DNA of 20,000 bases, from the IMG/VR virus record IMGVR_UViG_3300042564_002063, one strand, 5' to 3'. The notes under the pieces were generated by a model. The model was not told where the DNA came from. It did no database searches and saw nothing but the letters and a program-made list of their open reading frames with translations. The translations under genes were made by a program, and so were the position numbers. This stretch comes from an uncultured virus (IMG/VR IMGVR_UViG_3300042564_002063). Lineage: Duplodnaviria; Heunggongvirae; Uroviricota; Caudoviricetes. Positions within the stretch are counted from its first letter, which is position 1, and every line of letters starts with the position of its first letter. Positions 3,829 to 19,106 of this stretch are shown piece after piece.

Positions 3829-4422
3829 TTAATTAAATAAGTCGGCAGTTTTGAGGAAACGTCCGCCCCATAGGGATTTTTCAACCTTTTCTGGTTGTTC
3901 CTGTACAATCTCTCCGAGATCGCCAGACTTACGGAAAGCGGTGTCAGCCTCTACAGCGTCTACCCTCTTTCCAAAATTATCAAACTCTGATGCTGCCTGT
4001 GCTAGCTCACCCTTTACAGATGTAAGCTCGCCCTTTACAACACCTAGAGACTTGTTTAGCTCAGATACCTGCTCGTGTAGAGACTTTACGGTATCTGCTA
4101 GATCGCTAAAGGCTGATGTTAGAGTATTCTTGATGTCAGCTACTGCGTCAACAATAACATCATCTGACTTCGATACCTCTTCTTCAGCAGACTTGTCCAC
4201 GTCTTCAGACTTCATTGCTTCGTCTTTATCCATGTCATCAGACTTCTTCTCTTCATCCATAGACTTCTCGTCCATAGACTTTTCCTCGTCCATGGACTTT
4301 TCGTCCATAGTCTTGTCTTCGGAATAGCCCTTCTCTACTGCTTCGGCATCTGCCTCTGGAGCGACCTGTGTTTCTTCAACTACGTCGTCGTTTTTTACGA
4401 CATCTTCAGTTGCTTCGTTCAT
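3829..4422 (-). CDS. Nested in-frame scaffold protein (197 aa, MNEATEDVV...) from an internal start in the protease gene
   Basis: AAGGAGG at 4437-4431, 8 nt before the in-frame ATG at 4422 (Met254). The downstream sequence is acidic, then heptad-like. Confidence 0.6.
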   Translation of the reverse strand: MNEATEDVVKNDDVVEETQVAPEADAEAVEKGYSEDKTMDEKSMDEEKSMDEKSMDEEKKSDDMDKDEAMKSEDVDKSAEEEVSKSDDVIVDAVADIKNTLTSAFSDLADTVKSLHEQVSELNKSLGVVKGELTSVKGELAQAASEFDNFGKRVDAVEADTAFRKSGDLGEIVQEQPEKVEKSLWGGRFLKTADLFN

Positions 4423-5181
4423 AGGACTTGCCTCCTTCGTCATCTTAGAAAGATTAATGCCTTTAGCACTATCAACTAAGAACTTTATCATTTCTGTTTT
4501 TTCGTCATCATTCTTTTCAACGAAACCTATGTTCTTCATCTGGCTGCCATTAATTGGACTTACCTCTGCGTCTAAGTCAGATACCTTTACGATACCGCTT
4601 TCGCTATCCCAGAAGACATTTTCGAATTCTACATCTAGGTTGTCACCCTTGATCATATCTACACCGTCTACTTTCTCTACAGACAAAATATTTGCAAACT
4701 GGTTGGCTGGATTATCTACAAGAGATAGCTCTACCAAGTCATAATCTTTGATAATCCTGATTGACTTATCCATCTTCTCGTCATAAGCGTCATCCCACTT
4801 ATTCATTCGGCCACCGATAGAAAAACCAGAAAGGGTTCCATCTAGAACCTTCTCCCAGGTATCCTGAGCACCCTTTGAAACATAGGCAGAAACGTAAACA
4901 CCAGAGAAGAATTTCTTCGACTCTGGATCAAAATACTTGTCTTCCTTAAAGGAAACCATTTTGCCAACAGATAGTGGCTGGTGCATTTCACGAATGTTGC
5001 CACGGAACTTTGCGAATGCCTTTAGAGATGCATCGGTAGTAACGATATCTGACTGCTTGTCAACGTTATCAAGTGTGGCAAATCCTGAGACAATACGTCT
5101 CTCTGAATCGACCTTGCTAAAAGGCATCGAGAGTCGAACATTCTCACCCTCGGTGTCCCAGTGAACCTTTGATATAGTCAT
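3829..5181 (-). CDS. Prohead maturation protease (HK97-type) fused to an acidic/coiled-coil scaffold region (450 aa)
   Basis: N-terminal motifs 'RIVSGFAT..NVDKQSDIV', 'IREMH', 'GTLSGFSIGG', 'LVELSLVDNPAN' match the caudoviral prohead serine protease. It lies between the portal and capsid genes. Confidence 0.9.
   Translation of the reverse strand: MTISKVHWDTEGENVRLSMPFSKVDSERRIVSGFATLDNVDKQSDIVTTDASLKAFAKFRGNIREMHQPLSVGKMVSFKEDKYFDPESKKFFSGVYVSAYVSKGAQDTWEKVLDGTLSGFSIGGRMNKWDDAYDEKMDKSIRIIKDYDLVELSLVDNPANQFANILSVEKVDGVDMIKGDNLDVEFENVFWDSESGIVKVSDLDAEVSPINGSQMKNIGFVEKNDDEKTEMIKFLVDSAKGINLSKMTKEASPMNEATEDVVKNDDVVEETQVAPEADAEAVEKGYSEDKTMDEKSMDEEKSMDEKSMDEEKKSDDMDKDEAMKSEDVDKSAEEEVSKSDDVIVDAVADIKNTLTSAFSDLADTVKSLHEQVSELNKSLGVVKGELTSVKGELAQAASEFDNFGKRVDAVEADTAFRKSGDLGEIVQEQPEKVEKSLWGGRFLKTADLFN
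4240..4308 (-). repeat. Four degenerate tandem MDE(E)KS units in the scaffold region
   Basis: Translation MDEKS-MDEEKS-MDEKS-MDEEKKS from imperfect 15-21 bp DNA units. Confidence 0.85.
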
Positions 5182-7261: not shown

Positions 7262-10200
7262 CTATACTGGTTTTTGAATATTGGATATCCACGATACATT
7301 AGTATAAGCAGTATAAGAGTAGTCACCAAAAATTAAGTCTTCTCCGTCATCAACAATAATCTTGTTTGTTCCAGTGTATGCCTTATATACATCAGATGGG
7401 TCTACTCCGTAATAGCTGGTTGAGCTTACTACCAATACGCTGTTGTTTCCGCCCCACAAATATGGAATGATGTTCCAGTAGTTCCAATCCAATATTAGAG
7501 AGCCTGCCTTTTTAACCTTAAACCATGGTCTAAAAATTCTTGTCTGTACCTCTTGAAGGTTTGTAGACTTATAGTATGAGATATTGTTTACGGTTAATGG
7601 TCCAGTAATTCTGAATGCACCACTATAGTTATTAAAGTCTTGAGTATTTGCAAAACCAATACCTAGCATAGCCCACTCTTTTATGGTTATGTATGGATCT
7701 TTGACGATCTTGCCATTAACGTAAAATGCAATTCCGCTTTCGAGCTTACCCTTTTCATTTATCGCATATATTCTAGCTCTTTTGCCAGATGGGTGAGCTG
7801 CAACCATATATACTCTAATATAAGAGTTTTTGCTTTGAATCTCAAATATTTGAGTTGGTGCAAATGGGAATAGGTCTTGATCAAATCTCATAGATAGCTG
7901 CATAGCTATAACCTTGTAGTTATCGGAAGATTCTGGATTGATTGGCACAGATATACCACGATTAACTATTGGGTCATACTCTCCCTTTATTGTAATTCCG
8001 CTATCACGAGTCAGATATAAATACGGGGTACTCTTCTTGTATATTGAAAATGGATTTCTTGTCTTATAGGTGAAGTAGAATCCATCTTTTCTGTACGGAA
8101 ATATGTCATTTCCAAACCTAGTTCCAATTGGGGTTGGGCCTGTGTCTGAAAGAGATAGGGACGCATACTCTAAAGTTTTAATTTGGATTGGTGCATCAGA
8201 TACGCTTGACGAAGACATCTCTATGTGGGTAACAAGAGCTAAATTTTCAAAGCTTACTGATTGTGGAGGATAGATAACCACTCCATCCACTACCTCATAA
8301 GCTGTGGTTAGCCAGCTATCTCCTGGTGATACGATGCCGCTTTTTGGAGCCAACTCAAACTGAGAGTATGACGATAAAGGAGTGTTAGCCCCGTCTGAGA
8401 GTAGCTGAAAGGTAATATACGTCTTTACTACTGAGTTCGATGTGTCGTACTTGTAGGTATCTACTGCCCTATTTTTTAAATCGTCATAATTGTTAAAACC
8501 AGTAAATAAACTATTGTCTAACGAGGTGTACTCTCTTTGTATAGGAACAGAGTACTCTTCCTTAAGCTCTTCATAGGACCAGCTTCCTGTGGTTTCCTCT
8601 TGTATAAACTTTGATGGTGCTGGATAGTTAATGTTAAACTGAATAAAGTCTAGGTCTAGACGTTCGTCTCCCCTTGAGTCTAGTGAGTTTTTTGCAAACA
8701 CCGATAGAGGAATGTAATCTTCCCAGTAAGAATCAGCACCAACAACCACCTTAAACCCAGAAAGAGTGTCTTGTGCAGAAATATAGTAGCTTGCCATGTG
8801 ACCATTAATTATAGACTGAGCGTATGATCCAAAAGTACCTCCGTCATAAACAAAGTCAAATATTGCACTGGATGTAACGTCTTCTCCAGCATCTATAAGC
8901 TGTTGAATATAGTTTGCATCGATAAATTCATCCCAGACTATAGTTCCGTCAAAATAAAATGCAGAAGATATCTTTGAAGCATTTTTGCTTGAGCTAAACC
9001 CTACACCATAGAAGTTTCCAGAGAAGGTACTAGTGAAATCTTTTCTGCCACCTACATATATAGATGAAGATGAGAGCTTTCCAAAAAATTGAGCCGCTTC
9101 TCCTCCATAATAGTCAGAGAATTTAGAGATATCTACACCAACAATGAACTTTTCACCAACGCCGTCAAACTCTTTGGTCTTAGATGCTATTACAGTTTGA
9201 CCAGTTGGAGAACCTACAATATAATCAATAGTGCTTGGGGTTATAACTACCTCAAAGTATGACTGAGTGGCAGCATCCTCTATCATAAAAATTGTCTGGT
9301 TCTGGCTTGATGAAGCCTTCTCTTTACAAATTGCATAAAACATTTTTGGAATAGTGGCATCAATTGTTAGGTTATCTATAATCAAATACCCCTGGGAGTT
9401 TTGCCATTCTGATGATGGCCTAAGAGATATAAAGGACTCTTGCTCATTCTGACTGGATTCTAAGCCTTCGTTCCATTCTGACTCTGTTTTATTATTAAAT
9501 ACTGCTCTTGGCTTTTGGTATTCTGGAAAGCCAATAGAGTTTCCGCTAACAAGTATATTGTCGTATGTTGCCCTATTCCACTTGCCTATCCTTGGGTATG
9601 AATAATTCTTTGAATATTTAGAGAACGGATAATCAATAAATACTGAACTACCACTATAGGCATTATTGATATTTTCTGGGAATTCGACACCCTGGCCATA
9701 AACAAATCGTCTTTTTGCTACTTGGTTAGGAACCTTGTATCCGTATATTGCAATAGCGTCTATCTCAAATGGGTATACGTCGTCATGTGGGTAAAATCCA
9801 ATCCAGTCATTATCTAGTTGGGTATCTGAGTATCTGTCTGGAAATACAAGATTTTCTGAATCGATGAATGCCTGGCCAACCTGCTCTCCATTGATCAGTA
9901 GACTTATCTCTGAAGATGAATATCTTACATGCACTAGCATTGGCCTGTACCACTCACCAACGAAATGCCTTATTACGTTATCTCCTATTTTTAAAGATAG
10001 AAATGGGCCATTCACATATAGGCCGTCTTGTCCACGAATATTGCCGACAATTCTTTTTTCTTCATTAGTATCGGATGCTACTCTCATCCAAAATTCTAAG
10101 CTATACTCTTTGTGCTTTCCAGACTCATTCAAAAACCCTAGGGATGGAACTATCAGAGATGGGATATTTCCAGACCTTTGAAGAATTGTTAGGTTTGATC

Positions 10201-10960
10201 CTCCAAATACCATTGGGATACTGGAGTTTTTTGCAGCTAGAGTATTTTTCCTAACAAGGTAGTATCCATCTAAAGACTGTAGTCCATAAGATTTTGCAGG
10301 AATACCCTTGATTCCAGATGCACCGAATATGTCTGTGTCTATAGACTCTGGCATGACTCCTAGAGACGACGCATTAAATTCTTCAGACCACTGACCCAAA
10401 GTTATTCCATTCACTAAGAAGTCGTATTCGGTCTCTGGTGGGGCAGCAAAAAATCTAGCACCAATGACTATCCTAATATTAGTGTCTTGTGGTCTAGGAT
10501 TAAATGTATCTGATAGAAATATCCAGCTCTTATAAATTTCAGTAGAAAAAAACTTTACGTCCCTAATGGTTTCTCCACTTACAGTGTCAAAGTATTCATA
10601 CCCTAGATCAAAACCGCTTATGTACTCTGTGTCTGCATATACGAATGCCCCAATAGAAAAACTTGATAGATTTTTATCCAGATCATCAAGTGATACGATA
10701 TCTGGACTAATGCATTCTACAGAAAAGTCTTGCTCTGATAATGTACCAGAAATCCTGGAGGTAGTGCTTTCTGGAAATGGCTCATCTATAACAAAGAGTT
10801 CTGCTGACGCTGTTGCGTTGGTTATATCCCAGCCATCGGAGATGTCTCTTTGCTCTTCTGATATTAAGGATATATAGTCTGACACATCATCCAGTGCCCA
10901 AAAGGCTATTGGATGCTCTGAAAATACTTTTTCAGCATAAAGATTAGAAGGAATAGACAT
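7262..10960 (-). CDS. Large virion-associated protein with LamG/concanavalin A-like lectin domain(s) (1232 aa)
   Basis: 'PIAFWALDD', 'YSLEFWMR', 'GEWYRPMLVHVRY', 'LLINGEQV', 'IDAIAIY' form a LamG-like pattern. A second similar segment lies near the C-terminus ('FYVNGKIV...KEWAMLGI'). The protein is beta-rich and aromatic-rich. Confidence 0.65.
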   Translation of the reverse strand: MSIPSNLYAEKVFSEHPIAFWALDDVSDYISLISEEQRDISDGWDITNATASAELFVIDEPFPESTTSRISGTLSEQDFSVECISPDIVSLDDLDKNLSSFSIGAFVYADTEYISGFDLGYEYFDTVSGETIRDVKFFSTEIYKSWIFLSDTFNPRPQDTNIRIVIGARFFAAPPETEYDFLVNGITLGQWSEEFNASSLGVMPESIDTDIFGASGIKGIPAKSYGLQSLDGYYLVRKNTLAAKNSSIPMVFGGSNLTILQRSGNIPSLIVPSLGFLNESGKHKEYSLEFWMRVASDTNEEKRIVGNIRGQDGLYVNGPFLSLKIGDNVIRHFVGEWYRPMLVHVRYSSSEISLLINGEQVGQAFIDSENLVFPDRYSDTQLDNDWIGFYPHDDVYPFEIDAIAIYGYKVPNQVAKRRFVYGQGVEFPENINNAYSGSSVFIDYPFSKYSKNYSYPRIGKWNRATYDNILVSGNSIGFPEYQKPRAVFNNKTESEWNEGLESSQNEQESFISLRPSSEWQNSQGYLIIDNLTIDATIPKMFYAICKEKASSSQNQTIFMIEDAATQSYFEVVITPSTIDYIVGSPTGQTVIASKTKEFDGVGEKFIVGVDISKFSDYYGGEAAQFFGKLSSSSIYVGGRKDFTSTFSGNFYGVGFSSSKNASKISSAFYFDGTIVWDEFIDANYIQQLIDAGEDVTSSAIFDFVYDGGTFGSYAQSIINGHMASYYISAQDTLSGFKVVVGADSYWEDYIPLSVFAKNSLDSRGDERLDLDFIQFNINYPAPSKFIQEETTGSWSYEELKEEYSVPIQREYTSLDNSLFTGFNNYDDLKNRAVDTYKYDTSNSVVKTYITFQLLSDGANTPLSSYSQFELAPKSGIVSPGDSWLTTAYEVVDGVVIYPPQSVSFENLALVTHIEMSSSSVSDAPIQIKTLEYASLSLSDTGPTPIGTRFGNDIFPYRKDGFYFTYKTRNPFSIYKKSTPYLYLTRDSGITIKGEYDPIVNRGISVPINPESSDNYKVIAMQLSMRFDQDLFPFAPTQIFEIQSKNSYIRVYMVAAHPSGKRARIYAINEKGKLESGIAFYVNGKIVKDPYITIKEWAMLGIGFANTQDFNNYSGAFRITGPLTVNNISYYKSTNLQEVQTRIFRPWFKVKKAGSLILDWNYWNIIPYLWGGNNSVLVVSSTSYYGVDPSDVYKAYTGTNKIIVDDGEDLIFGDYSYTAYTNVSWISNIQKPV

Positions 10961-10987: not shown

Positions 10988-11581
10988 CTATTTTTCTAAA
11001 TGCCAAAAAGCTGGTGACATATACTTGATTCCACTAGCTATTGGCATGGACTCATGATAGAAAGGTGGCACGGATGGAAAGATTATCAAACTTCCAGCTT
11101 TTGGCTTTATTTTTACCCCTTGCTCTGAAAAGCTAATCTCTCCCCCAGAGTAGTTATCATTTAGGTAAAGAACAGCAGATATATTTTCTGTAGTTGGCTC
11201 TGGGCCTGAATCTGTGTGAGGTCCCATAGATGCCCCAGTAAAGTATTTGCTTATGCTAATTGGCATCTGAACCCCCAGATCAACGTTTAGCTTTTCTGCA
11301 TAGTCCTTGCCGTATACGGACAGAGTCCTTGTTAATACATCATACGCATCACGAATTTTACCGCTAGCAGAGTCATAAAATGAGACATCTGTTGTTTTTC
11401 TTTTTCCAAAGACATAGGAGTCTCCACTTGACATCCAGGTATGCCACTTAGAGATAAGAGATTCTTCTGATATATAGGAGTCTGTGCTTTCTATAAGATA
11501 CACAAGCTCTTCTGGGTTTGGTATTACGGACTCATAATAAAATATTTTTTCCGCAAAAACTTTAGGACTTTTTAGTCTCAT
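10988..11581 (-). CDS. 2OG-Fe(II) oxygenase, prolyl-4-hydroxylase-like (197 aa)
   Basis: HTD, 'SAVLYLNDNYSGGEISF', distal His in 'FYHES', and Lys in 'GIKY'. Confidence 0.88.
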   Translation of the reverse strand: MRLKSPKVFAEKIFYYESVIPNPEELVYLIESTDSYISEESLISKWHTWMSSGDSYVFGKRKTTDVSFYDSASGKIRDAYDVLTRTLSVYGKDYAEKLNVDLGVQMPISISKYFTGASMGPHTDSGPEPTTENISAVLYLNDNYSGGEISFSEQGVKIKPKAGSLIIFPSVPPFYHESMPIASGIKYMSPAFWHLEK

Positions 11582-12227
11582 TTCCCCACTCTTCCTTTTG
11601 CTTGTCTTGCTTAGGCTGCTCTGAACGCTTTAGCATTTCTAACTCCTCAAGGAATCCTTCTGGATATTCAATATCTGCGTAGTCCCACGATAATAGCATG
11701 GTATATCTTTCTCCAGAGGTAACCTCAGTTACTGCATGAACATTATCGATACCAACATCAAACACAATTGCGGTTCCAGCCTTTGGGGCAATAGAGATTT
11801 CGTGATCCCTAAACTTTAGGTTTCCACCTTCATAGTTGTCATTAAGATAAATAATTGTGACAAGCTTATTGTCTTGCCAAGCATTTGGAGTACCGTCTAG
11901 CTCTGCATTATCGGCATGGTATCCTGCGTAGGCACCTGGAAGCCATTTATGTGCACTTAGGGTGAGGTTTCGGACTGGTCTGCCCATAACATCTTCAGCG
12001 ACTTCTTTTAGGGAATGTCTTAGTTCATGGAAAAAGTTTGGATTAAACAGTTCAATGTCAAGCTCGTTTTTAGGTCCGTTTGGATCCATTACACGAGCAT
12101 TAAAAAAACAAGTTTTTTGCCACAAAGAGTCTCCAGCATCATAATAATCTATAAGCTTTTCACACTCTTCGCTTGATAAAAAGTTAGGTATTTCTACTAC
12201 ATCCTGCTTATGAACAATTTTTTCCAT
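11562..12227 (-). CDS. 2OG-Fe(II) oxygenase, prolyl-4-hydroxylase-like (221 aa)
   Basis: 'IPNFLSSEECEKLI', HAD, 'IIYLNDNYEGGNLKF', 'NVHAV', 'GERY'. Confidence 0.9.
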   Translation of the reverse strand: MEKIVHKQDVVEIPNFLSSEECEKLIDYYDAGDSLWQKTCFFNARVMDPNGPKNELDIELFNPNFFHELRHSLKEVAEDVMGRPVRNLTLSAHKWLPGAYAGYHADNAELDGTPNAWQDNKLVTIIYLNDNYEGGNLKFRDHEISIAPKAGTAIVFDVGIDNVHAVTEVTSGERYTMLLSWDYADIEYPEGFLEELEMLKRSEQPKQDKQKEEWGNETKKS

Positions 12228-12232
12228 AATGA

Positions 12233-12958
12233 TTAGGCAAGCTTATTGCCCTTTTTCCACTCCTCTTTCTGTCTAGCTTGTTGCTCACGAACCTTCTTTG
12301 TTTCTTCTTCCCACCAATTTTTCTTTTCCTCTGAGTATTCTGCATCTGCAAAATCCCAGAAGGATACCATAGTATACCTAGTACCTTCAGTAATTTCTGA
12401 TACACCATGTATATTTTCTACGCCACCAGGAAAAACAATTAGTGCATACGGTGTTGGCTTAAACGAGATATCGTGATCTGGGAAATATAGGTCCCCTCCC
12501 TCATAATTACCATTAAGGTATAGAATTGCCACATACTTATTAATTTCAAATGCATTAGGCTCGCCATGGTTGTCGGAGTTATCGGAGTGAGGGTTTGCAA
12601 AACCACCTACATCCCACTTTTGGGCATGTGATGTGTTTGCCTTTACTTCTCTACCAAAAACAGCCTCTACATAGGTCTTAAACTGCTCACGCAAGTTATC
12701 GAAAAAATCTCCAGGCAAGCTATAGTCTGCGAGCATTGGGTCGTTTGGCTGCAAGCCCATGCCAGAAGAGCCGTAGAAAGCAATGTCTCCCCACATCTCA
12801 GCCTTTGCCTCAAAGTAATTAATCATATTTTTAGCATCTTCTGGAGTCACAAAGTTTGGAATTTCTACAATTCTATTATCTTTAATTCCTAGAATACTAT
12901 TCTCTATTGGCTCATCTTTATAATATATAAAGCTATCAATATTTACATTATTATGCAT
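12233..12958 (-). CDS. 2OG-Fe(II) oxygenase, prolyl-4-hydroxylase-like (241 aa)
   Basis: 'IPNFVTPED', HSD, 'ILYLNGNYEGGDLYF', 'NIHGV', 'GTRY'. Confidence 0.9.
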   Translation of the reverse strand: MHNNVNIDSFIYYKDEPIENSILGIKDNRIVEIPNFVTPEDAKNMINYFEAKAEMWGDIAFYGSSGMGLQPNDPMLADYSLPGDFFDNLREQFKTYVEAVFGREVKANTSHAQKWDVGGFANPHSDNSDNHGEPNAFEINKYVAILYLNGNYEGGDLYFPDHDISFKPTPYALIVFPGGVENIHGVSEITEGTRYTMVSFWDFADAEYSEEKKNWWEEETKKVREQQARQKEEWKKGNKLA

Positions 12959-13634
12959 TGTCTACCTCCGAGTTACCGTGGGCAACTATCGTCCAAAAGA
13001 ATGGGCAAGTGTATCTAATTCCAGATTCTATTGTAGTTATGCCATGAATATAGTTCATGTCTCCTGGGAAGAAATATGCTGCCCCAGCCTTTGGCTTAAA
13101 TTGAATATCTTGGTTAGGGAAGTACAGCTCTCCACCCTCGTAATCATCATTTAGATAAATAATAGTTGCGATATCATACCAAGGAAAGTCGTTGGGCTTT
13201 CCTGCGTTTTCACCTTCGTGAAGTTCTTTATCTGCGTGTGGCATTTGAAGGTTTCCTGGAAGCCAGCGAACAAGAGCTGGAGATGTTGGATATGCCGTTA
13301 CGTTAAAGAAATTGTCAATCTCAACCTTAAGTCTCTTAACGATTGATCTAATGGTCTGTACGGTTTCAGGGCTCGTCTGATTAATAGTTGGATAAGTCGC
13401 TACACGGCCATCCCAATATCCAGAGTCATAGATTACGGTTCCGTCTTCATTGTAGTGGGTTTGGGTAATATCCCAGCTTTCATTATTACGGATAAAGCCA
13501 TTGAGTGCCTGAAGTTCTTCTTCAGTTAAGAAGTTCTCAAGTGTGCCGATCATTTCTGGACCATCTCCAAAAAATCCTGATGGCGTAATTGATACGGGGT
13601 TTTGATTATGATTATTAGTATATTGATTTTCCAT
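12951..13634 (-). CDS. 2OG-Fe(II) oxygenase, prolyl-4-hydroxylase-like (227 aa)
   Basis: 'LENFLTEEE', HAD, 'IIYLNDDYEGGELYF', 'YIHGI', 'GIRY'. Confidence 0.9.
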   Translation of the reverse strand: MENQYTNNHNQNPVSITPSGFFGDGPEMIGTLENFLTEEELQALNGFIRNNESWDITQTHYNEDGTVIYDSGYWDGRVATYPTINQTSPETVQTIRSIVKRLKVEIDNFFNVTAYPTSPALVRWLPGNLQMPHADKELHEGENAGKPNDFPWYDIATIIYLNDDYEGGELYFPNQDIQFKPKAGAAYFFPGDMNYIHGITTIESGIRYTCPFFWTIVAHGNSEVDNA

Positions 13635-13640
13635 AAACCA

Positions 13641-13649
13641 ATTATATCA
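13641..13649 (-). promoter_or_regulatory. Extended -10 promoter TGATATAAT, probably leaderless
   Basis: TGATATAAT-TGGTTT-ATG(13634) fills the 17-nt gap, with no SD. Confidence 0.7.
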
Positions 13650-13651
13650 CG

Positions 13652-14380
13652 TCAATCGTACTTTCGTCTTTCCCAAACATCACGCTGATAAATCCCTCCG
13701 CTTGGCTTTCTATACTTAAAGCTATTTGCCATATTCTTTGTGTATAACTCTGCAGGGTTTTCTATTACTATCTCAGTTTTCCAGTCCTCACGCTTGAAAG
13801 GAATTATTTGGGCATACGGAGTTCCTGCTGGTATTACACCAGTAAACCCCTTTGCTATAAAAAATGGCATTGTTCCTGGAAGACTTACCTTATCGTTATC
13901 AATTATTCCGCTAGTTGTCAGGAATGGCAGATCAAACCTGTTAAATGGTTGGGAGTATATTGCACTATATCCAGATGGTAGCTCTACTGCCCAATCTGCC
14001 CACCAAGCAAAGTGATGCTCATAATATCCCCATGGAACCTCAAACTGTGGCATGGGATCTCTAACATTAACAAAATCTTTATACTGATCATCTAGAATTT
14101 TTACTGATATTACTCCAGCATCATTCACGTAGAATTCAATATCACAAGGTGTCCTATAGACATATCCAGTTGTCATAATATCATAAAGTGCTGGGCAAGC
14201 TTTCCATGTAACTACCCTGCCACCATCGGGGGCAGTCCATGGCTCACCGTCAGGTCTCATGGCATATCTGTCAGCATCTTTATACCAAACTGGAATAGCC
14301 CTAGCTGTTGGGGTTGGCTTTGATATGCTGTCTTCGTTTAGCCAAGACCTATTTGAAATAAATTTAATAGACTTAGCCAT
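13652..14380 (-). CDS. Hypothetical protein, DUF6065-related (242 aa)
   Basis: 'WKACPALYDIMTTGY' and 'IPAGTPYAQIIP' parallel motifs in the neighbouring DUF6065-like gene. It lacks the YxNDxYxGG oxygenase core. Confidence 0.6.
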   Translation of the reverse strand: MAKSIKFISNRSWLNEDSISKPTPTARAIPVWYKDADRYAMRPDGEPWTAPDGGRVVTWKACPALYDIMTTGYVYRTPCDIEFYVNDAGVISVKILDDQYKDFVNVRDPMPQFEVPWGYYEHHFAWWADWAVELPSGYSAIYSQPFNRFDLPFLTTSGIIDNDKVSLPGTMPFFIAKGFTGVIPAGTPYAQIIPFKREDWKTEIVIENPAELYTKNMANSFKYRKPSGGIYQRDVWERRKYD

Positions 14381-15083
14381 TTGTAACTTTCATTACGATC
14401 TTCTTGACCTCGTGCTCACCAACAGATTCCCCAGTATGATCAACAGCATCACGATAGTAGTGTGTCCAGTGTCCTGCGGAATTCTTTTCCTGAGATGCTT
14501 CTGCTCTATTCTGCATTCTTTCTGACCACTCAGCAGTTTCCCACAATTCTGGTGTACCGCTTACAACATTAAGGCTATAAGCCTGTACGTCTTTTAATGA
14601 TATTGGCAAAATTGCTGCAATTGGAGTATTTGCTGGAATGGTAATTACTTCATTTGCCTTGTTAACTATCCAGGCAAGCGGAAAATCATTTTCTAATACT
14701 GATGTGCTTAATAAAGTAGTAAAGCACTGTGTCCCCTCTATAAATTGATTTGGAACTGGCATTGTTAGCAACGATACATTTTTTTTAGAAGAAAAATATA
14801 TTCCAGTATTAAAGCTTATGGTTCTATTTCCTCTATGAGGATGAACGTACCTCTCTCCAGAAAGGATGGATATATGGCTAGAAGTTGAGTCATTTATTCC
14901 GTCCCAAATAAATGATATATCTTCTGGAAACGAAAGATACCAACCTAAACGGTTTGCTAAAGAAACTGGAAAGCACTGATATGCGTGTCTATCAAAGGTT
15001 GCATCCATCCAATCTCTTTTCAGTGGAAGCTGATCTATGTTTGCAGAATGGCTACCAAGTTTGTAGACTGTTATGTCTTTCAC
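14373..15083 (-). CDS. DUF6065-like protein (236 aa, GTG start)
   Basis: 'RDWMDATFDRHAYQCFPVSLANRLGW' matches my recollection of the DUF6065 N-terminal signature. Also has 'IPANTPIAAILP' and a TAGTG overlap with the upstream gene. Confidence 0.7.
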   Translation of the reverse strand: MKDITVYKLGSHSANIDQLPLKRDWMDATFDRHAYQCFPVSLANRLGWYLSFPEDISFIWDGINDSTSSHISILSGERYVHPHRGNRTISFNTGIYFSSKKNVSLLTMPVPNQFIEGTQCFTTLLSTSVLENDFPLAWIVNKANEVITIPANTPIAAILPISLKDVQAYSLNVVSGTPELWETAEWSERMQNRAEASQEKNSAGHWTHYYRDAVDHTGESVGEHEVKKIVMKVTNG

Positions 15084-15787
15084 TAATTACCTGTCTCTGT
15101 GTAAAATTCTGGCTTATGGAACTTCTCTGAGTAATCAAGCATTGTAACTATTGAGAATTTTGTTCCAGAGTGTACGGGCATAGCACGGTGTGGGTACATA
15201 AAGTTAGATGGGAAAAGGTATAGGTCTCCCGCCTTAGCCTTGATGTTTAAATTTTGAAGCCTAAAGAAAAGCTCTCCACCTTCGTAGTCATCATTTGGAT
15301 ATGACACTGCAGAAAGAACACAGTTATAAGAATATCCGTTATCGTGATGTTCTTGGAAGTGTTGACCTGGACCATACTTGATAAAGTTCATAGCTTCCCA
15401 ATATCTAAGCTCTCCAATATTATGCATCTTGCAGTAATGCTTTACAGCCTGAAGCTGTCTAAAGTAGACCTCATCCCAAAGCTTACGTAGCTTATCTGCT
15501 GCCTCGCCCTGGTGCTCAGCAATATCTGTTTTCTTATATTTAAAATCTTTGCAGTCACGGTATTCTGGAATTTTCATGCCGTAGCCAACCATGGCCTCCT
15601 GATATTCATAATGATTGTTTGGGTCGTCTAAGACCTCTTCTAGTCGATTAATTATATCCATATCTTTTGGAAGTACGTCACGGTAAACAAGAATACCACT
15701 ACCAAGATCTTCAACAGAAGACCACGTAATTTCATCTATTTTATAAAAATCTTGAATTCTTTTATTTAAATCTTCTTGATCAGACAC
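15083..15787 (-). CDS. 2OG-Fe(II) oxygenase, prolyl-4-hydroxylase-like (234 aa, GTG start)
   Basis: 'KYGPGQHFQEHHD', 'SYPNDDYEGGELFF', 'YPHRA', 'GTKF'. SD AAGGAG upstream. Confidence 0.9.
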   Translation of the reverse strand: MSDQEDLNKRIQDFYKIDEITWSSVEDLGSGILVYRDVLPKDMDIINRLEEVLDDPNNHYEYQEAMVGYGMKIPEYRDCKDFKYKKTDIAEHQGEAADKLRKLWDEVYFRQLQAVKHYCKMHNIGELRYWEAMNFIKYGPGQHFQEHHDNGYSYNCVLSAVSYPNDDYEGGELFFRLQNLNIKAKAGDLYLFPSNFMYPHRAMPVHSGTKFSIVTMLDYSEKFHKPEFYTETGN

Positions 15788-15796
15788 TATGTCTCC

Positions 15797-16531
15797 TTAG
15801 TAAGTTAGTCTATTCATATCTTCTTGACGATAGTTGAAGTTTCTTAATCCTCCACGATCATTATAATCAGTCATAATTACGATTGAATACTTTGTTCCAG
15901 AAATCATGTCGTTTGATGCATGCTCATAAATATACGTAGATGGGAAGACAACCACATCACCCTTCTTTGGCTTTAGGGTCAGATTAAATCTAGGAAAGTA
16001 TAGCTCTCCTCCCTCATATCCTTCATTTGGAAATGCAACTACAGAGATTGTTGTAACATATGCTGGACCATGATCAGCATGGATCTTAAAGTGAGTTCCT
16101 GCCCCGTCGTACTTAACAAAGTTAAATGCCTCAAAGAAGTTTACTCCAACACCCCAGTACCTGCCGTAATCATCTACGTTTGGACTGATAGACCTAAAAG
16201 CCATCTCATGCATTTCGTATAGCTTAGAGTTGTGTTCGTCTTTTGGGCCAAGGTTGCTAGTGCTAACCTTAAAGTCTAGGCACTTCCTAGCCTCTTCTAG
16301 TACATCATCAGCCTCTGTTACCCTAGCACCCTGCCAGGAATACCTTGTCTGACCATTAAGGTTTCCTTCAAGCGTGTCAATAATATAATCGCAGAGGTCA
16401 CCGCTCATAGCATTATTATAAACATTAATGCCAAGTGCTGGATTACTTACTAAGACTCCTGCAGGAGTTACTCTAGATGGCATTCTATTTGAGTCTGTTT
16501 CTGATCTATCTTTTGTTAGCCAAGTATTCAT
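15797..16531 (-). CDS. 2OG-Fe(II) oxygenase, prolyl-4-hydroxylase-like (244 aa)
   Basis: 'KYDGAGTHFKIHAD', 'FPNEGYEGGELYF', 'YEHAS', 'GTKY'. Confidence 0.9.
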   Translation of the reverse strand: MNTWLTKDRSETDSNRMPSRVTPAGVLVSNPALGINVYNNAMSGDLCDYIIDTLEGNLNGQTRYSWQGARVTEADDVLEEARKCLDFKVSTSNLGPKDEHNSKLYEMHEMAFRSISPNVDDYGRYWGVGVNFFEAFNFVKYDGAGTHFKIHADHGPAYVTTISVVAFPNEGYEGGELYFPRFNLTLKPKKGDVVVFPSTYIYEHASNDMISGTKYSIVIMTDYNDRGGLRNFNYRQEDMNRLTY

Positions 16532-16538
16532 ATCCTCA

Positions 16539-16547
16539 ATTATAGCA
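16539..16547 (-). promoter_or_regulatory. Extended -10 promoter TGCTATAAT, probably leaderless
   Basis: TGCTATAAT-TGAGGAT-ATG(16531). Confidence 0.7.
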
Positions 16548-16549
16548 TA

Positions 16550-16577
16550 AGAGCCTAGGATGTTTCACCTAGGCTCT
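16550..16577 (-). terminator. Perfect 10-bp stem hairpin after the Fn3 gene, probable terminator
   Basis: AGAGCCTAGG (16550-16559), 8-nt loop, CCTAGGCTCT (16568-16577). It starts 14 nt after the stop and has a weak U-tract. Confidence 0.7.
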
Positions 16578-16591
16578 CTGCTTTATTTAGG

Positions 16592-17350
16592 CTAGAACGG
16601 TCCACCAACGCCACCAAGGAAGTATGGTGGGAAGTAAGGTGGGAAGTATGGTCCAAACGCTGGGAAGAATGGGAAGAACGGTGGGAAGTACGGGAAGCTT
16701 GGTGGGAAAAACGGTGGGAAGAATGGTGGGAAGAACGGAGAAATAGTTGTTACGCTATTAGAATTAGCAGAGTATTCACCAACGCCATTTGAATTTTCAG
16801 CACGGATCTGGTATGTCTGAGCTGTGCCACCTTCCTGGGTAATGTTAGTTGTGCTAGCAGGAGCATTTACTGTACCAGTCTTGCTGTCAGATGATGTCCA
16901 GCGATATAGCGTAATTGCCTTACCACCAGTTGCTGGAGCAGTCCAGTCAAGCTTGTCTTGATTAGTCTGAGCAGTAGCTGTTGGAGCTGACATGGTTGCA
17001 GGAACTGTTGTAGCTGTAACAGTAGTGGTAGACGATGCTGGAGATGTTCCAGCTGAATTTGTAGCAGTTACGCTAATTGTGTAAGTAACATTAGAAGCAA
17101 GGCTTTCTACAACAATAGGAGACGACGATCCCGTTGCAGTTCTAGTTGTCTGACCAGCTGCTGTAGCTGTAACGGTAAAGGATGTGGCTGCTGGTGATAG
17201 TGCTGGGAGTTCAAAAGCTACGCTAGCTGCTCCGTTATTAAATGCTCTATTTGTACCTACGTCAGTAGCAACTACGTTAATAGGTGCTAGAGGCTCTAGA
17301 AAGTCATTTGATGCTTGAGACTTTCTACCTGTTCTTTTTCCAGCTGCCAT
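16592..17350 (-). CDS. Fibronectin type III domain protein (two Fn3 domains) with a C-terminal Pro/Phe/Tyr repeat tail (252 aa)
   Basis: Fn3 patterns 'PLAPINVVAT ... LASNVTYTISVTATNSAGTSPAS' and 'VPATMSAPTA ... LDWTAPATGG..IT.Y ... YQIRAENSNGVGEYS'. SD AAGGAAGG. It follows the tail fibre gene. Confidence 0.85.
   Translation of the reverse strand: MAAGKRTGRKSQASNDFLEPLAPINVVATDVGTNRAFNNGAASVAFELPALSPAATSFTVTATAAGQTTRTATGSSSPIVVESLASNVTYTISVTATNSAGTSPASSTTTVTATTVPATMSAPTATAQTNQDKLDWTAPATGGKAITLYRWTSSDSKTGTVNAPASTTNITQEGGTAQTYQIRAENSNGVGEYSANSNSVTTISPFFPPFFPPFFPPSFPYFPPFFPFFPAFGPYFPPYFPPYFLGGVGGPF
16595..16738 (-). repeat. Degenerate 12-bp/9-bp coding repeat giving (P)P[F/Y]F units
   Basis: Encodes PFFPPFFPPFFPPSFPYFPPFFPFFPAFGPYFPPYFPPYFLGGVGGPF: 18 P, 17 F and 4 Y in 48 aa. 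The + strand shows recurring 'gggaag'. Confidence 0.95.
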
Positions 17351-17369: not shown

Positions 17370-19106
17370 TTATGCCGTTAGGTCGCCGTAGACCAACCAA
17401 GTGTTTTCTGCTCGCTTTAGAAGTGTTGCAGAAGACCACTGGGTCCTTAGCTTAAGTCCTGGAGTTGCATTGACTGTAACTCCACCTGCACCTGCAATTG
17501 TAACCTGACCAGTTCCAGTCTGAATAATATCAATAGTTGTTCCTACTGGGTAGGCTACTGAAGAATTTGTTGGAATAGTCAAGGTGGTTGCAGAAGACTT
17601 GCTAATCTCAACAATTGTATCACGTTCATTTAGATTAGAAAGTGTGTATGAGTCTGTCTTTTCAGCTATAGTAGTAATCGATGGAACACCCTGCTTTGTT
17701 TGAGTGCCGTCTGAGAATACGACACCAGTTGCCTCTAGGTTTCCAACAACAAGTGTTTCTCTTGTGGCGTTTGTGACATCTACTACGTTTGAAACTGGGT
17801 GTGGGACATTAGAAATAAGCTTCCACTTCTTTCCATCGCTTACGTCACGGAAGAATCCAGAGTGAAGGTGGCTTCCCTCAGTTCCTCCAACTACTCCAGT
17901 TGCTGCCAAGAAACCTACGTCTAGAACATCTTCATCGTATTGTCCAGATGCTAGGTAAATTAGTGGGTCTGACACAGATAGATCTGTTACATCTATGGTA
18001 GTAGTTGTTCCAGAGACCGTAAGGTTTCCTTCGACTATTAAGTTTGTCTCTACAGTTACATCACCAGTAAATGTTGCACCAGCAAGCGATGCCTTTGCAT
18101 CCAGTGCAGTCTGAGTTGCTGCAGAAACTGGCTTGTTAGCGTCAGAGGTATTGTCAACGTTACCAAGACCTACGTGTGACTTAGTTACACCAGCAACGGT
18201 ACCTGTAAAGGTAGGGTCAGCCGTAGGTGCCTTAGCATCTAGCTGAGTCTGAATAGCAGAAGTGACACCATTTACATATCCAAGCTCAGTAGACGAGACA
18301 TCTCCGACAGAGGTAGTGCTTGGAAGAACTACGGTTCCTGTAAAGGTTGGTCCACTTAGTGGTGCATATGTAGATGATGCAGTAGCAGATGCAAGCTTGG
18401 CATCTAGCTGACCTTGAATTCCAGAAGTTACGCCATTCACATATCCAAGTTCTGTAGAAGAAACATCACCAATTGATGTACTTGTTGGCAATACTACGGT
18501 TCCAGTAAAAGTAGGATTAGAGGTTGGAGCCTTGTCATCTAGCTCGCTTTGAATGCTTACGTCAGCTGCAGCTAGGTCATCTAGTTGCCCCTGGATAGAT
18601 GCTGTAGCACCAGACAGGTACTCGGCTTCTGTTACCGTAAGGCTTCCAATTCTAGCTGTAATGCCTGATGAAATAGAAGAGTTCATTTCCGAGGCATTGA
18701 CTAGATAGGATGTGCTGCTCCATGCGTCAGTGCCATTTCCAATCTTAAACTTTCCTGTGGTTGTGTCATATGCCAAGGTTCCTGCTGCAATAGCAGATGT
18801 ATCTGCATTCCACTGAGTAGTTGTCTTCTTAGCAATAGGAACAACCTTAGATGCGAAGTTTGGGTCATCGTTAATTGCTGCAGCTAGCTCATTTAGAGTA
18901 TTTAGAAGATCTGGTGCACCGTCAATAATGGATAGGAGCTCGGATGAGCTAGTGAAGTAGTCAAGATCGTCCCAGTGATTGATTCCATCACCAATCTTAA
19001 ACTTGTTGCTATCAGTTTCAAAACCGATTTCACCAGCTGCTAGGATAGGGTTGGCAGTAGCCCACTGAGAAGCTGTTCCTCTACGTTGCTGCATTCTTGT
19101 TGCCAT
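17370..19106 (-). CDS. Tail fibre protein with two Mtd_N-like domains and internal repeats (578 aa)
   Basis: 'MQQRRGTASQW...NPILAAGEIGFETD..KFKIGDG..HW..L.Y' is Mtd N-terminal-like, with a second copy 'GTLAYDTTTGKFKIGNG'. Fibre motifs 'APDLLNTLNELAAAINDDPNFA' and 'VGLGNVDNTSDANKPVS' are present. Confidence 0.85.
   Translation of the reverse strand: MATRMQQRRGTASQWATANPILAAGEIGFETDSNKFKIGDGINHWDDLDYFTSSSELLSIIDGAPDLLNTLNELAAAINDDPNFASKVVPIAKKTTTQWNADTSAIAAGTLAYDTTTGKFKIGNGTDAWSSTSYLVNASEMNSSISSGITARIGSLTVTEAEYLSGATASIQGQLDDLAAADVSIQSELDDKAPTSNPTFTGTVVLPTSTSIGDVSSTELGYVNGVTSGIQGQLDAKLASATASSTYAPLSGPTFTGTVVLPSTTSVGDVSSTELGYVNGVTSAIQTQLDAKAPTADPTFTGTVAGVTKSHVGLGNVDNTSDANKPVSAATQTALDAKASLAGATFTGDVTVETNLIVEGNLTVSGTTTTIDVTDLSVSDPLIYLASGQYDEDVLDVGFLAATGVVGGTEGSHLHSGFFRDVSDGKKWKLISNVPHPVSNVVDVTNATRETLVVGNLEATGVVFSDGTQTKQGVPSITTIAEKTDSYTLSNLNERDTIVEISKSSATTLTIPTNSSVAYPVGTTIDIIQTGTGQVTIAGAGGVTVNATPGLKLRTQWSSATLLKRAENTWLVYGDLTA
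18195..18530 (-). repeat. Internal fibre repeats: two 45-aa units plus a partial third
   Basis: AP...PTFTGTVVLP..TS.GDVSSTELGYVNGVTS.IQ.QLDAK begins at 18530 and 18365, and 'APTADPTFTGTV' begins at 18230. Confidence 0.9.

Follow-up and report, generated by a model that had tools for sequence, protein, structure and literature searches.

In a 20,000-nt stretch of DNA from an uncultured tailed virus (Caudoviricetes; IMG/VR record IMGVR_UViG_3300042564_002063), hereafter the window, the gene of an Fn3 protein that ends in a tract of proline, phenylalanine and tyrosine residues is followed by eight consecutive genes, encoding six 2-oxoglutarate (2OG)- and Fe(II)-dependent oxygenases of the PF13640 family (oxA to oxF) and two DUF6065-type proteins (dufA and dufB). 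This arrangement, with the eight genes tightly packed after a 60-nt gap, agrees with the original prediction made from the sequence of the window. Among relatives, oxB- and dufA-like genes accompany tracts rich in Pro-Pro pairs and are absent from loci with Pro-poor tracts. This co-variation, the gene content, the neighbourhood, the catalytic residues and the modelled folds were observed directly. They lead us to a tentative reading, which we regard as close to evenly balanced: the tract may be a structural spacer or tail to which oxA, oxB and DUF6065 are tied, prolyl hydroxylation being the likely reaction.

Tract type and enzyme content in relatives

The Fn3 protein combines a Pfam Fn3 domain (residues 42–111; PF00041 cut-off, 25 bits) with a second Ig-like domain (residues 117–203) that is seen only via a weak PHROG match. 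The protein also matches weakly a minor tail protein family (phrog_6977, E 3.6e-4). A recount of the final 48 residues gave 18 P, 17 F and 4 Y, i.e., the 39 Pro, Phe or Tyr residues stated originally; the three amino acids account for 8.9% of the first 203 residues. At the DNA level, the tract consists of imperfect repeats with periods of 12, 21 and 24. The window protein ends in LGGVGGPF and features neither a Cys-rich nor a Hint-like module. Many homologues (L019, L024, L029, L038, L045 and L017; L numbers denote loci) carry a domain of about 150 aa after the tract, which starts with C[IV]xEDTLI and ends with HNK or HNSKV. This domain looks like a Hint/intein-type self-cleaving domain, which would leave a reactive C-terminus on the tract; Hint_2 matches long Fn3 variants at 22.5 bits, under the cut-off of 28.4, and the C...HN(K) ends were spotted by eye. 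Other homologues (L018, L049, L062, L073 and others) feature a Cys-rich module of about 25 aa after the tract, such as CSGCIRSYCWQACPGCCGSCGC.

IMG/VR was scanned for relatives of the Fn3 gene and dufB (the best 80 of 294, the best 80 of 461, 42 loci with 44 relatives, and the best 80 of 521). The resulting 226 Fn3-like open reading frames (ORFs) correspond to 155 distinct proteins, of which 124 were kept and 31 dropped. Retention required that the gene was complete, that a tract could be recognised and was preceded by 150 or more residues, and that the locus had either a downstream boundary gene or a flank of at least 6 kb. Two loci were set by hand: L203, in which a 588-aa carrier with a PPHF/PPFF tract is encoded downstream of the block (11 oxygenases entered versus 9 listed, with the class unchanged), and L144, which was classed as Pro-rich and has 9 Pro-Pro pairs.

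An aromatic/Pro tract is present in every Fn3 homologue, and two kinds can be distinguished. Pro-rich tracts (PFFP/PPFF/PPYF; 93 loci) have a Pro fraction of approximately 0.3–0.45 and many Pro-Pro pairs, and Pro-poor tracts (F(S/T)PFG, FSPFGVFG or FTPYS; 31 loci) have a Pro fraction of approximately 0.15 and no Pro-Pro pairs. Tract and enzymes are adjacent in nearly all relatives with enough flank. Genes similar to oxB occur in 93/93 Pro-rich versus 0/31 Pro-poor loci, dufA-like genes in 92/93 versus 0/31 and oxA-like genes in 86/93 versus 0/31, which is the co-occurrence that the original prediction had put forward for testing. Counts for the other members are 91/93 versus 15/31 (oxC-like), 91/93 versus 3/31 (oxD-like), 91/93 versus 4/31 (oxF-like) and 93/93 versus 9/31 (dufB-like), and at the oxF position one short oxygenase is kept in many Pro-poor loci. 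The eight genes were originally taken as one dedicated set. This does not hold, since specificity for Pro-rich tracts is confined to genes of the oxA, oxB and DUF6065 types; oxC to oxF and dufB may or may not take part in the same task.

The number of oxygenases, which ranges from 0 to about 11 across relatives and is in many cases cut by contig ends, tracks repeat composition, a relation that the original prediction had likewise put forward for testing. Raw Spearman coefficients, uncorrected for ancestry, are 0.77 for Pro fraction, 0.80 for Pro-Pro count and 0.63 for tract length; within the Pro-rich class, the corresponding uncorrected values are 0.48, 0.50 and 0.36. Two loci (L016 and L261) are intermediate, with short tracts, 1–3 Pro-Pro pairs, and oxA and oxB as sole enzymes.

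The pairing of tract and enzymes persists where the carrier, the strand or the order of genes is different. At least 126 stretches matched a DNA pattern for PFFPPFFPPFFP, and the DNA of about 80 was examined. The search from the PFFPPFFPPFF tract gave 73 loci with an in-frame carrier, 32 of which are flanked by 6 kb or more on either side; of these 32, oxB-like genes are found in 25, dufA-like genes in 23 and oxygenases of any type in 28. In large carriers (706–1383 aa), the tract lies within the protein and connects domains. A second conserved layout involves small carriers (83–163 aa), which are not Fn3-like, have unrelated N-terminal portions and terminate in ...FK. They are found among fibre-type genes, 0.7–7 kb from an oxB and dufA pair (L298, L321, L349, L355, L356, L363 and L366), in a layout that includes one or two more oxygenases, partly on the opposite strand.

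The pairing is also visible genome-wide. The genomes G002, G003, G004 and G006 have 10, 10, 6 and 11 PF13640 matches and 5, 4, 16 and 22 PFFPPFFP-coding sites, respectively. G005, a complete 109-kb genome with an FTPYS tract, has one PF13640 match and no PFFPPFFP-coding site. A reversed control pattern gave 0, 0, 0, 0 and 5 sites in the five genomes. Oxygenases of complete relatives are also found among nucleotide-metabolism genes: in G003 (~11.4–13.1 kb) and G006 (~69.6–73.0 kb), both complete, more PF13640 oxygenases flank a canonical dUTPase, far from the fibre-side block.

The oxygenases and the DUF6065-type proteins

All six oxygenases pass the 27-bit cut-off of PF13640 (2OG-FeII_Oxy_3), with scores of 31.3–51.6 bits, and are 20–36% identical to one another. 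In their alignment, His151, Asp153 and His204 are invariant, and a Lys or Arg is found ten residues past the second His in all six proteins; the HxD...H motif and the basic 2OG residue originally ascribed to them are thus confirmed. A profile of the six paralogues matched solved structures of P3H1 (4.5e-10), PKHD (6.4e-10), the B. anthracis prolyl 4-hydroxylase (P4H; ~3e-9), the P4H of chlorovirus PBCV-1 (5c5t, 5e-7) and LH3, with EGLN1 near 1e-3. Only protein hydroxylases were matched at E < 1e-4, and a Tet-like chain reached only E 0.092. Similarly, 13/13 chains matching the oxB profile are P4H, lysyl hydroxylases or PKHD (B. anthracis P4H, 8.1e-5). The proposed prolyl-hydroxylase-like identity is supported, as the solved structures with the best matches comprise prolyl 3- and 4-hydroxylases together with lysyl and PKHD hydroxylases; the similarity is weak and places the proteins in the protein-hydroxylase branch of the superfamily. 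None of the NCBIfam equivalog cut-offs is reached by the oxygenases. For instance, the best score for the PKHD-type dioxygenase equivalogs NF003974 and NF003975 is 33.1 bits versus cut-offs of 143 and 180, and oxE weakly matches the cyclophane-peptide oxygenase YhhC (NF041706, 29.2 bits, cut-off 150). No significant match to TET/JBP or AlkB was obtained (Tet_JBP, 18.2 and 16.6 bits versus a cut-off of 34.9). In phage records, oxB has cyanophage and marine matches only (92 records, <60% identity).

The dufA protein is a clear PF19541 (DUF6065) member, its score being well above the cut-off of 26.6 bits. Its neighbour dufB has no Pfam match. It shares phrog_7084 with dufA (9.8e-6 for dufA), aligns to the dufA profile with an hhalign probability of 81.5%, and PF19541 is present on 12–23% of the members of its nearest Atlas clusters; by these comparisons, dufB is only a distant DUF6065 relative. 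A literature search found no paper on the DUF6065 family.

Structure models were obtained from alignments of 40 (dufA) and 34 (dufB) relatives, with pLDDT values of 85.8 and 90.0. The dufA model is closest to dUTPases, which fill the top 11 rows (Z 8.3–9.8; best match with rmsd 2.7 over 115 aligned residues), followed by dCTP deaminases (Z 5–6) and unrelated rows (<4). For dufB, the top 8 rows are dUTPases (Z 8.3–9.2; best match with rmsd 3.3 over 120 aligned residues), and Foldseek gave E 3.8e-4 to a dUTPase. In the models, both proteins have a dUTPase-like fold that covers nearly the whole dUTPase chain. They are not oxygenase-like.

At the sequence level, neither protein matches PF00692 (dUTPase), and the dufB profile gave 0 matches among PDB sequences at E up to 10. 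A weak alignment of dufB to the relatives' own dUTPases (hhalign E 0.0074, probability 5%, 67 columns) spans motifs 2–4, including an invariant Asp and Gln, and pairs the invariant GIIDND with GTIDAG (motif 3) and YAQII with IAQLV (motif 4); the corresponding dufA alignment has E 0.42. Invariant cysteines are Cys37 in dufA and Cys62 in dufB. A canonical dUTPase is present alongside dufA and dufB in 2/5 relatives, and dufB as a stand-in for a missing dUTPase was therefore rejected as a simple rule.

Relatives of dufB were found in 50 cultured records, namely 49 haloarchaeal tailed viruses and one cyanophage. In the Halorubrum virus HSTV-2 (gp40, L285), the DUF6065 gene (PF19541, 35.7 bits) follows thymidylate synthase and DNA polymerase genes, and in cyanophage S-RIM4, the dufB relative follows both ribonucleotide reductase subunits; neither has an oxygenase neighbour. 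The haloarchaeal-virus context hints at a nucleotide-related role for the family. Bacterial DUF6065 genes (>300 bits) lack an oxygenase neighbour in 6/6 loci examined. The order RNase D, DUF6065, ppx, ppk is found in two alphaproteobacterial loci, and the bacterial neighbourhood was discarded as a clue to function, neighbours being mixed housekeeping genes (RNase D, ppx/ppk, type II secretion, aminotransferase). In a Gemmataceae metagenome-assembled genome (L280, 8824–9792), the gene after DUF6065 has a weak match, below cut-off, to hydroxyproline O-arabinosyltransferase (E 4.2e-4).

Organization of the window and likely host

All long ORFs of the window are on the minus strand (Table 1). In the order of transcription, a 149-aa fibre-type protein, the Mtd_N fibre protein and the Fn3 protein are followed by the 60-nt gap, the genes oxA-oxB-dufA-dufB-oxC-oxD-oxE-oxF, a 1232-aa protein and a 124-aa protein; the portal, the prohead protease and the major capsid protein are encoded 3' of the latter. 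The block thus lies between the fibre and the portal/capsid genes, as described originally, with the reservation that the 1232-aa and 124-aa genes intervene before the portal. Within the block, genes are separated by gaps of 9, 17 and 5 nt or overlap by 1, 8, 8 and 20 nt. The 1232-aa gene starts 27 nt after oxF and is linked to the head genes by a 12-nt gap and a 1-nt overlap. Spacings from the block to the head genes (-20 to +27 nt, one direction) fit expression together with the structural genes, and the tight packing embeds the block in a one-direction run of such genes. In relatives, the 1232-aa gene is kept between the island and the portal.

Table 1. Coordinates of the block and neighbouring features in the window.
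Feature	Position	Strand	Evidence
Fn3 protein, 252 aa, final gene of fibre run	16592..17350	-	PF00041 32.5 bits; 19-nt gap after Mtd_N fibre gene
Pro/Phe/Tyr tract, residues 204-252, SPFFPPFFPPFF...PPYFLGGVGGPF	16595..16741	-	composition; imperfect DNA repeats
Hairpin, 10-bp stem, in Fn3-oxA gap	16550..16577	-	folding energy, stem scan
Promoter-like GTGAAA-18-TATAAT with TG, overlapping hairpin	16539..16568	-	10/12 consensus matches
oxA, 2OG-Fe(II) oxygenase, 244 aa	15797..16531	-	PF13640 38.1 bits; HxD...H + K
oxB, 2OG-Fe(II) oxygenase, 234 aa	15083..15787	-	PF13640 51.6 bits
dufA, DUF6065 protein, 236 aa, dUTPase-like fold (model)	14373..15083	-	PF19541 105.4 bits
dufB, distant DUF6065 relative, 242 aa, dUTPase-like fold (model)	13652..14380	-	phrog_7084 1.3e-31
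oxC, 2OG-Fe(II) oxygenase, 227 aa	12951..13634	-	PF13640 31.3 bits
oxD, 2OG-Fe(II) oxygenase, 241 aa	12233..12958	-	PF13640 33.8 bits
oxE, 2OG-Fe(II) oxygenase, 221 aa	11562..12227	-	PF13640 48.8 bits
oxF, 2OG-Fe(II) oxygenase, 197 aa, directly before 1232-aa gene	10988..11581	-	PF13640 46.1 bits
Mtd_N fibre protein, 578 aa (context)	17370..19106	-	PF18454 70.5 bits; many tail-fibre PHROGs
1232-aa protein, weak LamG-like match (context)	7262..10960	-	PF13385 E 0.0046, below cut-off

A hairpin and a new promoter had been proposed in the gap between the Fn3 gene and oxA. The hairpin is strong: the 60-nt gap folds at -26.5 kcal/mol (z -5.94), a value equalled by 0/200 shuffles. The promoter-like site is no more than a candidate, as such sites occur at chance frequency in the region, with 23 versus 22.4 in shuffles (terminator-like sites, 6 versus 5.9). 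In relatives, the 90 nt past the Fn3 stop fold at -20 kcal/mol or below in 56/116 distinct sequences, and no shuffled mean does; these comprise 51/86 Pro-rich versus 5/30 Pro-poor relatives. Many of the hairpins feature GC stems and T runs, and their sequences are unrelated. Because strong folds recur after the stop, the Fn3 gene often appears to be the end of a transcription unit, or to be followed by an attenuator.

The block DNA, the Fn3 protein and dufA have no match among 50,697 phage records (cultured phages). Lake and freshwater metagenome runs contain near-identical DNA. The prohead protease is approximately 40% identical to proteases of 130-kb Streptomyces siphoviruses, and 127/139 matching records are Streptomyces phages. 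Genes for WhiB are found in 4/4 complete relatives with terminal repeats (101–152 kb) and, in a control search of 14 genomes, in Corynebacterium only; an actinobacterial host is therefore likely. Two structural proteins of the window have additional features. The Mtd_N fibre protein contains internal repeats (PTFTGTVVLPS...GDVSSTELGYVNGVTS...QLDAK), and the prohead protease (3829–5181, minus strand) carries a long acidic insert with EKSMDE-type repeats, probably a fused scaffold, that separates the protease part from a coiled region at the C-terminus.

Possible substrates of the block

In the reading that we favour, the Fn3 protein would be the last product of the fibre gene run, and we infer that it is located on the virion. 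Its tract would be a stiff, very hydrophobic spacer or tail, a device apparently in wide use in this phage group; in related phages, such tracts are followed by a Cys-rich knot, by a Hint-like domain that would cleave itself or by a domain of another kind, or join domains within large proteins. The core of the block would be formed by oxA, oxB and dufA, functionally tied to Pro-Pro-rich tracts. The tract would be the substrate of oxA and oxB, which would hydroxylate its prolines in an Fe(II)- and 2-oxoglutarate-dependent reaction, like collagen-type, plant and chlorovirus prolyl hydroxylases acting on Pro-rich repeats. Hydroxylation would increase the solubility of the tract and lock it in an extended conformation. 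The remaining oxygenases (oxC to oxF) might act on other tract positions, other tracts or other substrates, and dufB more likely has a separate, possibly nucleotide-related, function and shares the island.

One of the closest known arrangements is the tandem dioxygenase array gp41-gp54 of Synechococcus phage Syn9 (Iyer, Abhiman, de Souza and Aravind, Nucleic Acids Res 2010, PMC2938197). Going by the passages of that paper on the array, Syn9 and the window both encode several unlike classical 2OG-Fe(II) dioxygenases and a dUTPase-fold protein with a conserved cysteine; by its predicted gene content, the window is a variant of this known type of phage oxygenase array. The Syn9 array is found directly after tail-fibre genes, and the block likewise maps on the fibre side. 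Syn9 gp43 and DUF6065 align weakly but collinearly (E 0.0016, probability 16%), and gp46 was rejected as a DUF6065 relative for lack of similarity (E 0.44). The Syn9 array differs in carrying two tryptophan halogenases and a JmjC protein; no JmjC/MINA or halogenase match was found among 20 window proteins scanned.

Precedents for the reaction come from other systems. The PBCV-1 P4H hydroxylates prolines in Pro-Ala-Pro-Lys repeats, as summarised in a review (PMC3634087, citing Eriksson et al. 1999). It is a viral enzyme of the same superfamily, matched by the six-paralogue profile as reported above. PBCV-1 combines one enzyme with hydrophilic repeats in a eukaryotic algal virus, whereas the window combines six paralogues and dUTPase-fold proteins with an aromatic tract in a bacteriophage, and is known from its genes only. 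In bacteria, tail-collar and collagen-like proteins have been proposed as substrates of co-encoded hydroxylases, in predicted operons where beta-hydroxylase/PhyH dioxygenases and sulfotransferases lie beside such proteins (PMC2938197, in the passages on these operons). The operons and the window share the idea that a co-encoded repetitive or fibre protein is the substrate of adjacent dioxygenases. The operons differ in their dioxygenase families, in their Gly-rich triplet substrates and in being cellular, and are likewise predictions. In plant extensin-type hydroxyproline-rich proteins, Pro-Pro runs and aromatic residues occur in a structural protein, and hydroxylation by prolyl 4-hydroxylases is the first step. 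The likeness to the window is one of composition only, the window having neither a Ser-Pro4 motif nor an arabinosyltransferase. The pairing of a Pro/Phe tract with an oxygenase array was not found described in the literature searched, including that on cyanophage 2OG enzymes, actinophages and PPFF/PFFP.

Adjacency and the tracking of tract composition by the enzymes favour the tract as their dedicated substrate, as originally proposed; the claim is weakened by the small number of independent changes (3–4) and the physical linkage of the DNA. In a quick IQ-TREE tree of the 200 residues before the tract (37/118 inner branches starred), 4 changes each were counted for tract type and for oxB presence, and supported branches force at least 3 of those in tract type. 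Tract and oxB change together in 3/3 independent pairs, a number with which concordance cannot attain significance (sign test, p 0.25); an earlier test with a cruder enzyme class gave 2–3 concordant of 4–5 pairs. The tract is the 3' end of a gene abutting the block, and a single recombination could move both. Raw counts overstate the evidence, because recombination between the conserved Fn3 part and the 1232-aa gene would carry tract and block together.

Individual loci also weigh against hydroxylation of the tract. For instance, L187 carries a Pro-poor FTPFG tract together with four oxygenases and two dufB-like genes, without oxA, oxB or dufA, and 7/32 tract loci (L297, L299, L300, L312, L313, L318 and L365) have no oxB-like gene within 6–10 kb. 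Among the latter, the block is about 30 kb away on the same contig in L299, and the locus L366, which overlaps L365, has oxB 750 nt from a second carrier. The L297, L312 and L318 contigs are fragments (31–50% estimated completeness), and absence of oxB cannot be claimed for them. No Pro/aromatic tract was found in 26 neighbouring proteins examined in Syn9. The hairpin parts the Fn3 gene from the block both in the window and in the 56 relatives mentioned above; it does not discriminate between readings, since the enzymes would be available during synthesis of the Fn3 protein whether they are transcribed from a promoter of their own or, through read-through, along with the head genes.

A further objection comes from Pro-poor loci, where the space between the Fn3 and 1232-aa genes houses a class II ribonucleotide reductase, a cobalamin adenosyltransferase and other genes. 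The B12-dependent reductase (676 aa) is found in the island in L165, L169, L170, L045 and L206, in L165 with the adenosyltransferase, and a dufB-like gene directly precedes a ribonucleotide reductase in L045, L206, L222 and L255. Sulfotransferase-like and GlcNAc-transferase-like genes and proteins of 200–240 aa of no known family are also present in the Pro-poor island. Conserved pairs of 215–225-aa proteins without a Pfam match follow the Fn3 gene in Pro-poor relatives. The main rival explanation, to which we give a minor though appreciable probability, builds on these contents: the site would be a variable auxiliary island at the fibre/head spot, host proteins, metabolites or a small peptide product would be the targets of its enzymes, and the match to the tract would reflect ancestry and linkage. 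It would also account for the wide range in oxygenase number, for the additional oxygenases scattered elsewhere in complete relatives, for the hairpin and promoter-like site ahead of oxA and for the scarcity of independent tract changes. It is further consistent with the existence of the Syn9 array without a Pro-rich tract; Iyer et al. suggested secondary-metabolite synthesis for that array and, in the passages on it, proposed no phage protein as product (PMC2938197). However, a variable island does not explain why oxB and dufA are split by tract type or why the pairing persists across gene orders, strands, carriers and whole genomes, and a profile scan of the window found no scaffold-building enzyme.

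We consider it distinctly unlikely that all six oxygenases and both DUF6065-type proteins constitute one tailoring line resembling those of ribosomally synthesised and post-translationally modified peptides (RiPPs), with a tract that is hydroxylated and then glycosylated or cross-linked. Although the eight genes are packed with overlaps of 1–20 nt, all six oxygenases keep their catalytic residues, enzyme number increases with Pro content and tract length, and oxE recalls YhhC, the latter match is far below its cut-off. Moreover, oxC-, oxD-, oxF- and dufB-like genes also stand beside Pro-poor tracts, dufB relatives adjoin thymidylate synthase or ribonucleotide reductase genes without oxygenases, and the bacterial DUF6065 loci have no oxygenase neighbours. 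None of the RiPP hallmarks (leader or recognition element, processing protease, exporter, dedicated tailoring family) was found among the window proteins scanned, nor was a glycosyltransferase. The RiPP-like precursor-plus-tailoring layout originally envisaged is thus not retained, as the window has no RiPP family and the tract is carried by a two-domain protein of 252 aa encoded within a fibre gene run.

Hydroxylation of a virion protein other than the tract protein (the Mtd_N fibre, the 149-aa fibre protein or the 1232-aa protein) is very unlikely in our judgement. The position of the block between fibre and head genes, the similar placement of the Syn9 array and the tail-collar and collagen-like substrates proposed in bacteria (PMC2938197, same passages) are compatible with it, but the fibre and 1232-aa genes occur in Pro-rich and Pro-poor loci alike and so do not track the enzymes, and the encoded proteins have no Pro-rich repeats. 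Least probable of all, with only a slight chance of being correct, is modification of nucleotides or DNA, in which the dUTPase-fold proteins would handle nucleotides and the oxygenases would oxidise bases. It draws on the modelled folds, on the weak alignment of dufB to the phages' own dUTPases over motifs 2–4, on the nucleotide genes next to dufB relatives, including ribonucleotide reductase in the four loci listed above, and on the oxygenases flanking the dUTPase in G003 and G006. Against it, all good oxygenase matches are protein hydroxylases, TET/JBP and AlkB gave no significant match (the Tet-like chain staying at E 0.092), and the probability of the dufB-dUTPase alignment is 5%.

A broader version of tract hydroxylation, which we find unlikely as a whole, would give freshwater actinophages an extensin-like fibre element, i.e., a Pro-Pro-aromatic polymer whose various positions would be hydroxylated by specialised paralogues. 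DUF6065 would then be a novel type of peptide-acting enzyme or a substrate-holding helper on a dUTPase scaffold, with a conserved Cys and His, and the rigid or adhesive rod would present variable end modules, such as the Cys-rich knot or a Hint-made reactive end, to the host surface. If true, phage dioxygenase arrays would obtain their first defined substrate.

Arrays of 2-oxoglutarate oxygenases in aquatic phages have been known since at least 2010, without a substrate in the account given of them (PMC2938197, passages on phage arrays). The lineage described here offers a candidate substrate that can be synthesised, (PPFF)n, and narrows the first enzymes of interest to oxA, oxB and DUF6065. 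Should hydroxylation of the tract prove false, the split of oxB and DUF6065 by tract type would still call for another explanation. Should it prove true, the block would represent the first system for hydroxyproline formation after translation in a structural protein of a bacteriophage, and DUF6065 would acquire a role.

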